From the NCBI RefSeq assembly GCF_003334255.1, contig NZ_QOWU01000215.1: 597 bases of DNA. The stretch is one strand, 5' to 3'. The DNA comes from Escherichia coli (GTDB lineage Bacteria > Pseudomonadota > Gammaproteobacteria > Enterobacterales > Enterobacteriaceae). The translations under genes and the position numbers were made by a program. Below the pieces are notes generated by a model. It worked only from the letters and a program-made list of their open reading frames with translations. It was not told where the DNA came from and did not search any database. Positions 275 to 597 of the stretch are shown one piece after another. Within the stretch, counting starts at the first letter, position 1. Every line of letters begins with the position of its first letter.

Positions 275-597
275 ATGAGCGGATTTGCACAGGGGTTACT
301 TGCCGGATTCAGCACCGTTGACCAGGCCATGACCCGTCGTAAGGAGCTTGGTCTGCGTGAAGCACAGCTTGCTCAACAACAGAAAAATAACGAGCGCGAT
401 TTTGAATTTGCGCAGTCGCAGTTTGAGCATCGAAAGGAAAATGATCAGCGTACATATGATCTTAATGTCAAAAATGCCGATCGTGAATATGCGCTGAAAG
501 AGAGGGAACACGCCGCAGCGCAGAATTACCGGAATGCGTCGCTGGGTATGGAGCAGCAGCGACTCCGGATGCAGAAATACAACCAGCGACGGCTTGA
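275..597 (+). CDS. Partial CDS, 3' end beyond the window; Q/R/E-rich predicted alpha-helical or coiled-coil protein with an N-terminal GxxxGxxxG segment; function unknown (candidate phage structural, internal virion or ejection-type protein)
   Basis: My translation from ATG 275 is MSGFAQGLLAGFSTVDQAMTRRKELGLREAQLAQQQKNNERDFEFAQSQFEHRKENDQRTYDLNVKNADREYALKEREHAAAQNYRNASLGMEQQRLRMQKYNQRRL, 107 codons with no stop through 595. An in-frame TGA at 272..274 sits immediately upstream, so 275 is the first possible start. It has a strong SD at optimal spacing. The 107 residues contain no Pro, Ile, Cys or Trp, and include 14 Gln and 13 Arg. Confidence 0.75.
   Translation, partial: MSGFAQGLLAGFSTVDQAMTRRKELGLREAQLAQQQKNNERDFEFAQSQFEHRKENDQRTYDLNVKNADREYALKEREHAAAQNYRNASLGMEQQRLRMQKYNQRRL

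Follow-up and report, generated by a model that had tools for sequence, protein, structure and literature searches.

The internal or 'ejection' proteins of podoviruses are a known kind of protein. Phage P22 injects gp7, gp16 and gp20 in about 12, 12 and 30 copies, respectively (PMC8402733), and the T7 gp15-type ejection proteins are largely helical, internal proteins of 431-982 amino acids with very fast divergence (PMC8954989). Ejection proteins are highly divergent and are usually recognized by size and synteny, not by sequence (PMC8954989). The 597-nucleotide stretch of Escherichia coli DNA analyzed here (contig NZ_QOWU01000215.1; the whole stretch is called the window below) ends within an open reading frame (ORF) that probably encodes the N-terminal quarter of an internal virion protein, of the 'ejection' or 'pilot' type, from a short-tailed temperate phage like 933W and phi24B. 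Phages of this type spread Shiga toxin (Stx) genes. The assignment is made because the phi24B orthologue is an abundant virion protein, because the gene is syntenic with that of a packaged giant protein, and because a natural chimera joins the same kind of N-terminal module to bodies of the P22 gp20 and gp16 types. The same three lines, including the roughly 30 virion copies that have no place in a cryo-electron microscopy (cryo-EM) model, now favor one of the possibilities listed in an earlier note on this stretch, which had been made from the sequence alone.

The frame at position 275 has been shown to be a real gene of 421 codons, translated from the ATG at 275-277 on the + strand. The junction reads ...TTT TAA GGA GTG GTG A ATG AGC..., in which AAGGAG (263-268) overlaps the TAA (262-264) that ends an upstream 83-residue ORF, and the in-frame TGA at 272-274 makes the choice of start codon unambiguous. 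The frame then stays open for 107 codons, up to base 595, with two bases remaining, and it was left out of the ORF list that accompanied the earlier note because it runs off the window edge. That note had nevertheless recognized the gene from its strong Shine-Dalgarno sequence, the upstream stop and the open run, all of which are confirmed by rereading the sequence. Its residue counts (14 Gln, 13 Arg, 10 Glu and 8 Asn, with no Cys, Ile, Pro or Trp) are exact on recount, and there are also 12 Ala and 10 Leu. The length of the open run is by itself only suggestive, since a run of at least 108 codons reaching the 3' end arose in 190 of 20,000 mononucleotide shuffles (about 1%). The chance of finding no Ile, Pro, Cys or Trp over 107 residues is about 3e-7 at average E. 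coli residue frequencies, for which approximate values were used. In the identical sequence of E. coli G1/2 the frame continues to 421 codons with no early stop, and the extreme composition proves to be confined to the first ~130 residues; the full-length product, still without Cys, contains 15 Pro, 14 Ile and 1 Trp. The description of the protein as proline-free is thus correct for the part encoded in the window and incorrect for the whole. Judged from substitution rates, the codons of this gene are under purifying selection relative to the 933W orthologue, with ratios of nonsynonymous to synonymous substitution (dN/dS) of 0.37 for codons 1-107 and 0.22 for the entire gene.

The window is 100% identical to part of the E. 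coli G1/2 chromosome and to at least four further strains among the matches listed, and it is 87.6% identical to phage 933W. Among 5,426 complete E. coli genomes, about 420 carry related sequence. In G1/2 the window is part of a 933W-like prophage (Sepvirinae, short-tailed), where the full ORF (L001:12275-13540) encodes a protein of 421 amino acids and 46.7 kDa with an isoelectric point of 6.3 (WP_170725889.1). It is annotated 'hypothetical protein' in this record and is 'hypothetical' everywhere else. The orthologues are L0133 of 933W and vb_24B_47 ('gp48') of phi24B, the latter with 84% identity over the full protein. PHROG 601 ('unknown function') is matched across residues 1-421 (E 1.2e-199), and a homologue in Vibrio phage D80 also matches this family (E 8e-37). 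A HMMER scan of 1.84 billion cluster representatives returned 74 relatives at E<=1e-3, mostly of 400-580 amino acids, and in the phage collection the relatives belong to Stx-type phages and to about 100 Vibrio phages.

The L0133 family has no functional annotation in PHROGs and is unmatched by any Pfam or NCBIfam family. Pfam-A gave no match to the 421-residue protein, even at E<=10, or to any of 53 relatives, and NCBIfam gave only a sub-threshold low-complexity match to the 421-residue protein. No DNA-binding or enzyme domain appeared in either search; homology to an unrelated enzyme family was what the earlier note had named as counting against its proposal. Sequence and profile searches of the PDB gave nothing significant. 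The best match was a Rib-like 'VTYPDGST' hairpin (E 0.07). In a Foldseek search of BFVD the top two matches resemble family members or fragments of them, the third was marginal (E 7e-4), and no other reached E 0.001. Searches of the literature by locus tag, accession and PHROG number found no paper on the L0133/PHROG 601 family, and the supplement of a 2025 paper on phages of enterohemorrhagic E. coli is without a protein list.

Experimental evidence comes from a 2026 bioRxiv preprint on phi24B, in which gradient-purified virions were analyzed by cryo-EM and proteomics (10.64898/2026.04.10.717836). Its spreadsheet lists the orthologue as an ORF at 47852-49114 encoding 421 amino acids. The whole-virion digest yielded 179 peptide-spectrum matches (PSMs) for this protein; the portal had 101, the lateral fibre 167 and the giant protein 746. 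In gel slices the orthologue peaked just above the major capsid protein. The authors estimated 18-56 copies per virion, with an average of 30, and they list its structure-based abundance as 'ND', meaning that it has no place in the cryo-EM atomic model. Mass spectrometry detected peptides covering residues 2-21, 22-34, 38-54 and 78-96 (10.64898/2026.04.10.717836). The N-terminal one of these, SGFAQGLLAGFSTVDQAMTR (residues 2-21, preceded by M), confirms the start codon and indicates that only the initiator Met is lost, with the N-terminus otherwise untrimmed. Virion association of the orthologue is thus already recorded in the preprint supplement, where it stands without comment; the main text is silent on this protein and describes no protein other than the giant gp47 as an encapsidated ejection protein (10.64898/2026.04.10.717836).

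The gene lies at the end of the Sepvirinae late operon, about 12 kb downstream of the capsid gene. In G1/2 the tail fibre genes are followed by a phage tail tip fiber gene, lom, and ORFs of 133, 218, 148 and 83 amino acids; next come the 421-residue gene, a gene for a 2,793-residue 'LPD38 domain-containing protein', and the bacterial gene yfdC. The phi24B authors propose that the giant neighbor is an encapsidated ejection protein (10.64898/2026.04.10.717836). Conservation of this arrangement was examined in seven independent contexts, namely the Sepvirinae, Vibrio phage D80 and five metagenomic or genomic loci. In each of the seven, the next gene after the family member is a giant ORF. These ORFs have 2,793, 3,066, 4,206, at least 965 (at a contig end), 4,891, 3,189 and 2,103 amino acids, and several of them contain InPase and LPD38/LPD39 domains. 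A glycine-zipper protein of a single architecture is encoded upstream of the family member, again in seven of seven contexts, with an HNH endonuclease gene inserted between the two in Vibrio phage D80. Proteins of this architecture start with M-x-Y-G/S-L/I, continue as a polar helix and close with a Gly/Ala-rich membrane segment, of which the last residues are usually SLF. Their length is 77-83 residues in five contexts; in the other two an Ala/Thr/Gly-rich linker expands it to 205-236. In these respects the family resembles the ejection class: the phi24B orthologue, to which the virion data apply, is in virions but outside the capsid and tail lattices, and in all seven contexts the gene shares a contiguous late cassette with genes for a small membrane protein and for the largest virion protein.

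A third line of evidence is a natural chimera, P0145, a protein of 1,386 amino acids in three parts. Residues 2-281 belong to the L0133/PHROG 601 family. Residues 367-483 align with positions 288-402 of a gp20-type 'DNA ejection protein' from phiKp_30, a P22-like Klebsiella phage (38% identity, E 2e-18); this phiKp_30 protein is homologous to P22 gp20 and Sf6 gp12. Residues 911-1380 match residues 136-598 of P22 gp16 (36% identity, E 2e-77 by BLASTP). The family module, with its glycine-zipper tip, long helix, bundle and beta domain, thus replaces the N-terminal part of a gp20-type protein, and no giant protein adjoins P0145. The chimera demonstrates that ejection proteins can exchange modules. 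It is no demonstration of homology, and the profile tests of the family against gp20 are all negative.

The predicted structure has a long rod with a conserved tip. AlphaFold2, run with an alignment of 53 relatives that have about 20% identity to the query, gave a model of the 421-residue protein with a mean predicted local distance difference test score (pLDDT) of 85 and a predicted template modeling score (pTM) of 0.50. In the model, residues 4-129 form a single uninterrupted helix (pLDDT 78-94 across most of it) about 19 nm long, with GxxxGxxxG at its tip. It is followed by short helices arranged as a bundle (132-200), then by a small beta domain (213-266) and by more helices up to the C-terminus. 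The part encoded in the window consists only of the N-terminal motif and the long helix, and the long alpha-helical protein foreseen in the earlier note is therefore what the model predicts across this entire part. The family's most conserved motif, VTYxDGSTAxKPxT, sits in the predicted beta domain. Within the N-terminal motif, G7 and G11 are each conserved in at least 90% of the 53 relatives, and the first 30 residues contain GxxxG in 50 of them and GxxxGxxxG in 36. The helix segment, measured from conserved G11 to conserved G130, has 101-137 residues (median 122). Q, A, R, E and D are abundant in this segment throughout the relatives, and Pro makes up 0.5% of it; the length of the C-terminal part ranges from 122 to 305 residues.

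The earlier note had also called the protein coiled-coil-like, which stands in part. A Fourier test for the hydrophobic 3.5-residue heptad gave no signal in the 3.3-3.8 band (z -1.5 to +0.5). There is, on the other hand, a family-wide repeat: residue-similarity autocorrelation over 51 relatives peaks at lags of 7, 11, 18, 25 and 36 (z 4.6-15.4), and the phi24B orthologue alone gives z values of 4.2, 2.9 and 2.8 at lags 7, 11 and 18. These peaks amount to an 18-residue (7+11) repeat with 3.6 residues per turn, visible as [D/E/Q]-R-x-[Y/F]-x-[L/F] units. Such 3.6-residue spacing is expected of helices packed side by side without supercoiling.

How closely does this protein resemble described ones? 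The nearest analogue is P22 gp20/Sf6 gp12 (PF16928; PHROG 917, 'released from the phage upon host infection'), which is of similar size (471 versus 421 residues) and is likewise present in about 30 copies per virion outside the icosahedral and tail lattices. Both genes come after the tail needle genes and lie between those for smaller virion proteins and that for the largest protein of the cassette. Both proteins have a Gly-rich N-terminal motif, GGFLAGIG in the P22 gp20 type and GFAQGLLAGF here. Unlike the case of P22 gp20, the downstream partner is a giant polyvalent protein and not gp16. The helix with its 18-residue repeat and the VTYxDGS beta domain have been seen only in the L0133 family, no gp20 model having been compared. 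Alignment by hhalign with P22 gp20, with phiKp_30 gp20 and with a six-sequence gp20 alignment gave probabilities of 0.2-1%; PF16928 is matched by none of the 53 relatives and not by the 421-residue protein, and a database search with P22 gp20 returned only near-identical sequences. As for the neighbors, 933W L0129 gave no alignment with P22 gp14, and the match of L0130 to P22 gp7 (E 0.025) is not convincing.

The gene for T7 gp15 has a similar placement, between those for the small membrane-inserting gp14 and the largest ejection protein, gp16 (PMC8954989). T7 gp15-type proteins, including those of solved structure, show no sequence or fold match to the 421-residue protein. The phi24B preprint, unlike descriptions of T7, describes no core stack, and about 30 copies exceeds the 8 (in the virion) and 6 (ejected) reported for T7 gp15. 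The best-supported description of the 421-residue protein is as a positional analogue of P22 gp20 or T7 gp15, without demonstrable homology to either.

Bcep22 gp74/JC1 gp68 (PHROG 9667, 'virion structural protein') is also encoded directly upstream of a giant protein, in this case a 'DarB-like' protein of about 4,500 residues. JC1 is a Bcep22-like phage with relatives of the 933W capsid, portal and head-closure proteins; its gp68 is encoded just upstream of a 4,515-residue giant protein and is virion-associated by mass spectrometry (PMC9144972). Every one of 30 members of the Bcep22 gp74/JC1 gp68 family has an N-terminal GxxxGxxxG. Alignment of the L0133 and Bcep22 gp74 families by hhalign covers only 24 N-terminal columns (probability 17.6%), and Bcep22-type proteins have a Pro/Ala-rich linker where the L0133 family has its long Q/R/E helix.

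The ejection of the 421-residue protein, and its role in DNA delivery, are inferred. About 30 copies would be stored inside the head and, once the tail needle is lost, would leave by way of the portal and tail channel, either before the DNA and the giant protein or together with them; the bare helix should be thin enough to pass the tail channel without unfolding. At the envelope, the glycine-zipper tip and the small glycine-zipper protein would engage a membrane. The 18-residue-periodic helices could then associate laterally as a straight bundle or tube. This structure would prolong the short tail so that it spans the periplasm, as has been proposed for P22 gp20 and T7 gp15. Much less confidence attaches to any specific geometry of the conduit than to the general assignment. 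In particular, it is a speculative and on balance doubtful proposal that the helix of conserved length (~120 residues, ~18-19 nm) serves as a periplasm-spanning ruler, that some 30 copies form a tube passing DNA and a ~300-kDa polyvalent protein, and that the N-terminal module is a portable 'delivery cassette' swapped among unrelated ejection proteins and borrowed by a satellite-like island.

Several points weigh against the assignment as an internal, ejection-type protein. No sequence or profile similarity to P22 gp20 or PF16928 is detectable. The proteomic data come from an orthologue with 84% identity and not from this prophage, and their source is a preprint. Location inside the head, ejection and membrane contact are inferred rather than seen by experiment. 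The P0145 chimera shows exchange of the N-terminal module and not its function. The helix lacks a hydrophobic heptad signal, so that self-assembly into a bundle is deduced from residue periodicity only, and the pTM of 0.50 makes the relative placement of the domains uncertain.

One might alternatively suppose that the protein is a head-internal assembly adaptor, packaged in order to recruit or organize the giant polyvalent protein in the procapsid and having no channel role at the envelope. The model for such a protein would be DarA/Hdf of phage P1, which are packaged head proteins that accompany the very large injected protein DarB (PMC9144972). The strict adjacency of the gene to a giant ORF in all seven contexts speaks for this explanation, and so does the copy number of the protein, which is similar in magnitude to the estimate for the giant protein. 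The JC1 paper treats the Bcep22-like giant protein as DarB-like, and P1 needs accessory proteins (PMC9144972); a rod of conserved length could also act as a spacer or scaffold inside the head. However, the P0145 module is attached to gp20/gp16-type bodies with no giant protein next to it, and contact with a membrane is indicated by the glycine zipper at the N-terminus and by the small glycine-zipper membrane protein that always accompanies the family. In addition, library searches of PHROG, Pfam and NCBIfam revealed no similarity to the P1 Dar proteins, and P1 is a myovirus, a different type of phage from the short-tailed 933W. P1 DarA/Hdf are not known to have membrane motifs. On this evidence an adaptor with no envelope function is rather unlikely.

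A second alternative is an external flexible appendage, such as a fibre, a whisker or an accessory of the needle tip, that was averaged out of the cryo-EM maps. The gene does lie downstream of the tail-fibre and tail-tip genes, a 19-nm rod with a globular end resembles a fibre, and the phi24B authors saw unassigned density at the needle tip (10.64898/2026.04.10.717836). About 30 copies do not suit a single needle tip, however, and the authors assign that density to gp54/gp55 (10.64898/2026.04.10.717836). The cassette also ends in a protein that the same authors place inside the capsid, and the swap partners of the module are ejection proteins, all of which makes an appendage very improbable.

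It is barely credible that the protein is a non-structural contaminant, as the GenBank note on vb_24B_47 ('transcription initiation factor / seryl-tRNA synthetase-like') and the preprint's spreadsheet label 'gp48 Transcription factor?' would imply, or, in a related variant, a tape-measure or scaffolding protein, given that its PSM count in the whole-virion digest exceeds that of the portal, that it forms a discrete gel band of the expected size, and that Pfam and NCBIfam reveal no DNA-binding or enzyme domain. The transcription-factor reading is rejected: the GenBank note (L003:3853-5118), which reads 'similar to putative transcription initiation factor and seryl tRNA synthetase' and was the source of the preprint's label, is unsupported and probably records a spurious match of the Q/R/E-rich helix. 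The earlier note had also entertained tape-measure-like and scaffolding-type proteins, and neither suggestion survives. A tape measure is rejected because this is a Sepvirinae podovirus with a short tail and the gene follows those for the tail fibres, the phage tail tip fiber and lom. A scaffold gene is expected between those for portal and capsid, with a product that is lost from mature heads; this gene is far downstream of the capsid gene, and its full-length product is retained in virions with its N-terminus intact.

Assignment to the internal, ejection-type set, together with the neighboring glycine-zipper ORF that is labeled 'bacteriocin', would give a name to PHROG 601, correct the misleading GenBank note on vb_24B_47 and define a six-gene cassette for experimenters. 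The conserved length of the rod and the natural gp20/gp16 chimera offer testable handles on how a conduit is built. No new kind of system emerges from the result, which adds detail to a known theme. The features of the window are collected in Table 1.

Table 1. Features of the 597-nucleotide window, with positions counted from its first base
Feature	Positions	Strand	Basis
TAA (1-3) of the preceding gene (homologue of 933W L0131), overlapping the Shine-Dalgarno sequence AAGGAGG (2-8) of the 83-residue ORF	1..8	+	Sequence reading; G1/2 neighborhood
Gene for the 83-residue partner (933W L0132): polar helix and C-terminal Gly/Ala-zipper membrane segment ending GSLF	13..264	+	PHROG 594; synteny
Shine-Dalgarno sequence AAGGAG, 6 bases before the ATG	263..268	+	Direct sequence reading
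In-frame TGA directly 5' of the ATG	272..274	+	Direct sequence reading
5' part (codons 1-107 of 421) of the gene for a 46.7-kDa virion protein	275..597	+	Translation; full ORF in G1/2; PHROG 601; phi24B peptides
N-terminal glycine-zipper motif G3-x3-G7-x3-G11-F (GFAQGLLAGF)	281..310	+	Best-conserved part encoded in the window; alignment of 53 relatives; dN/dS
Predicted long alpha-helix, residues 4-129 (window stops at 107), rich in Q/R/E/A/D, with an 18-residue (7+11) repeat marked by Tyr/Phe	284..597	+	AlphaFold2; autocorrelation

The 83-residue ORF is named 'bacteriocin' or 'YMGG-like glycine zipper' in some RefSeq records, and residues ~33-81 of its product give weak matches, far below the cut-offs, to two NCBIfam models of the glycine-zipper/OmpA type. 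In phi24B virions it was detected with 6 PSMs, which the authors dismissed as a 'bacteriocin' contaminant (10.64898/2026.04.10.717836). Rather than a bacteriocin, it is probably a small virion protein that inserts into membranes. Other products of the cassette are also found in phi24B virions, with about 22 copies of the orthologue of the 218-residue protein and about 36-40 of the 148-residue one (L0131, 'gp50') (10.64898/2026.04.10.717836); the L0129 orthologue has no entry in the part of the phi24B proteome file that was available. For the giant protein itself (L003:5149-13572, 2,811 amino acids), spectral counts lead to an estimate of about 19-35 copies per virion, a figure that seems very large for a T=9 head also holding 57.7 kb of DNA and that may be an overestimate.

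Neither an Rfam match nor any promoter-like or terminator-like site was found in the window on either strand, which fits a position internal to an operon. Shorter ORFs in the other frames and on the other strand are unannotated in every record examined. At both gene junctions in the window a TAA overlaps an AAGGAG(G) Shine-Dalgarno sequence, and 9-10 bases separate the stop from the next ATG. These overlaps, at 1-8 and 262-268, suggest that translation may be coupled along the cassette. The window also contains a 19-nucleotide direct repeat (138-156 and 517-535, 79% identity between the copies), most likely by chance.

Within the helix-coding region, codons 51-100 (window 425-574) form a divergent block with 73% nucleotide identity to 933W and a dN/dS of 0.45, next to codons 1-50, which are 96% identical with a dN/dS of 0.05. 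The block looks like the product either of mosaic exchange or of relaxed constraint on the sequence of the rod at preserved length. Outside the window, the VTYxDGSTAxKPxT motif (L001:12950-13070, residues ~226-266) resembles the Rib-type 'VTYPDGST' hairpin of 6s5w_A, the PDB match noted above, which is too weak for interpretation.

P0145 (L005:10001-14161) is encoded in an island that also has genes for an integrase, AlpA, Bro-N and a P4-type primase; neither capsid nor tail genes lie close by. Complete E. coli genomes lack this island, which could be a satellite-like element that carries its own ejection protein. In a metagenomic relative, P0135, half of the small glycine-zipper ORF (the N-terminal one) is apparently fused in frame to the L0133 family; its C-terminus is frameshift-like, and the fusion may therefore be an assembly artefact.

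The G1/2 prophage has an annotated Hok/Gef family toxin gene (L001:10206-10346) in the interval that separates lom from the start of the cassette; the 933W record has nothing annotated in that gap and places hokW elsewhere. A GNAT acetyltransferase is encoded at or near the cassette head in one metagenomic relative (L018:6881-7342) and in phage JC1 (L010:425-865), roughly at the position occupied in 933W by the gene for the 133-residue L0129.

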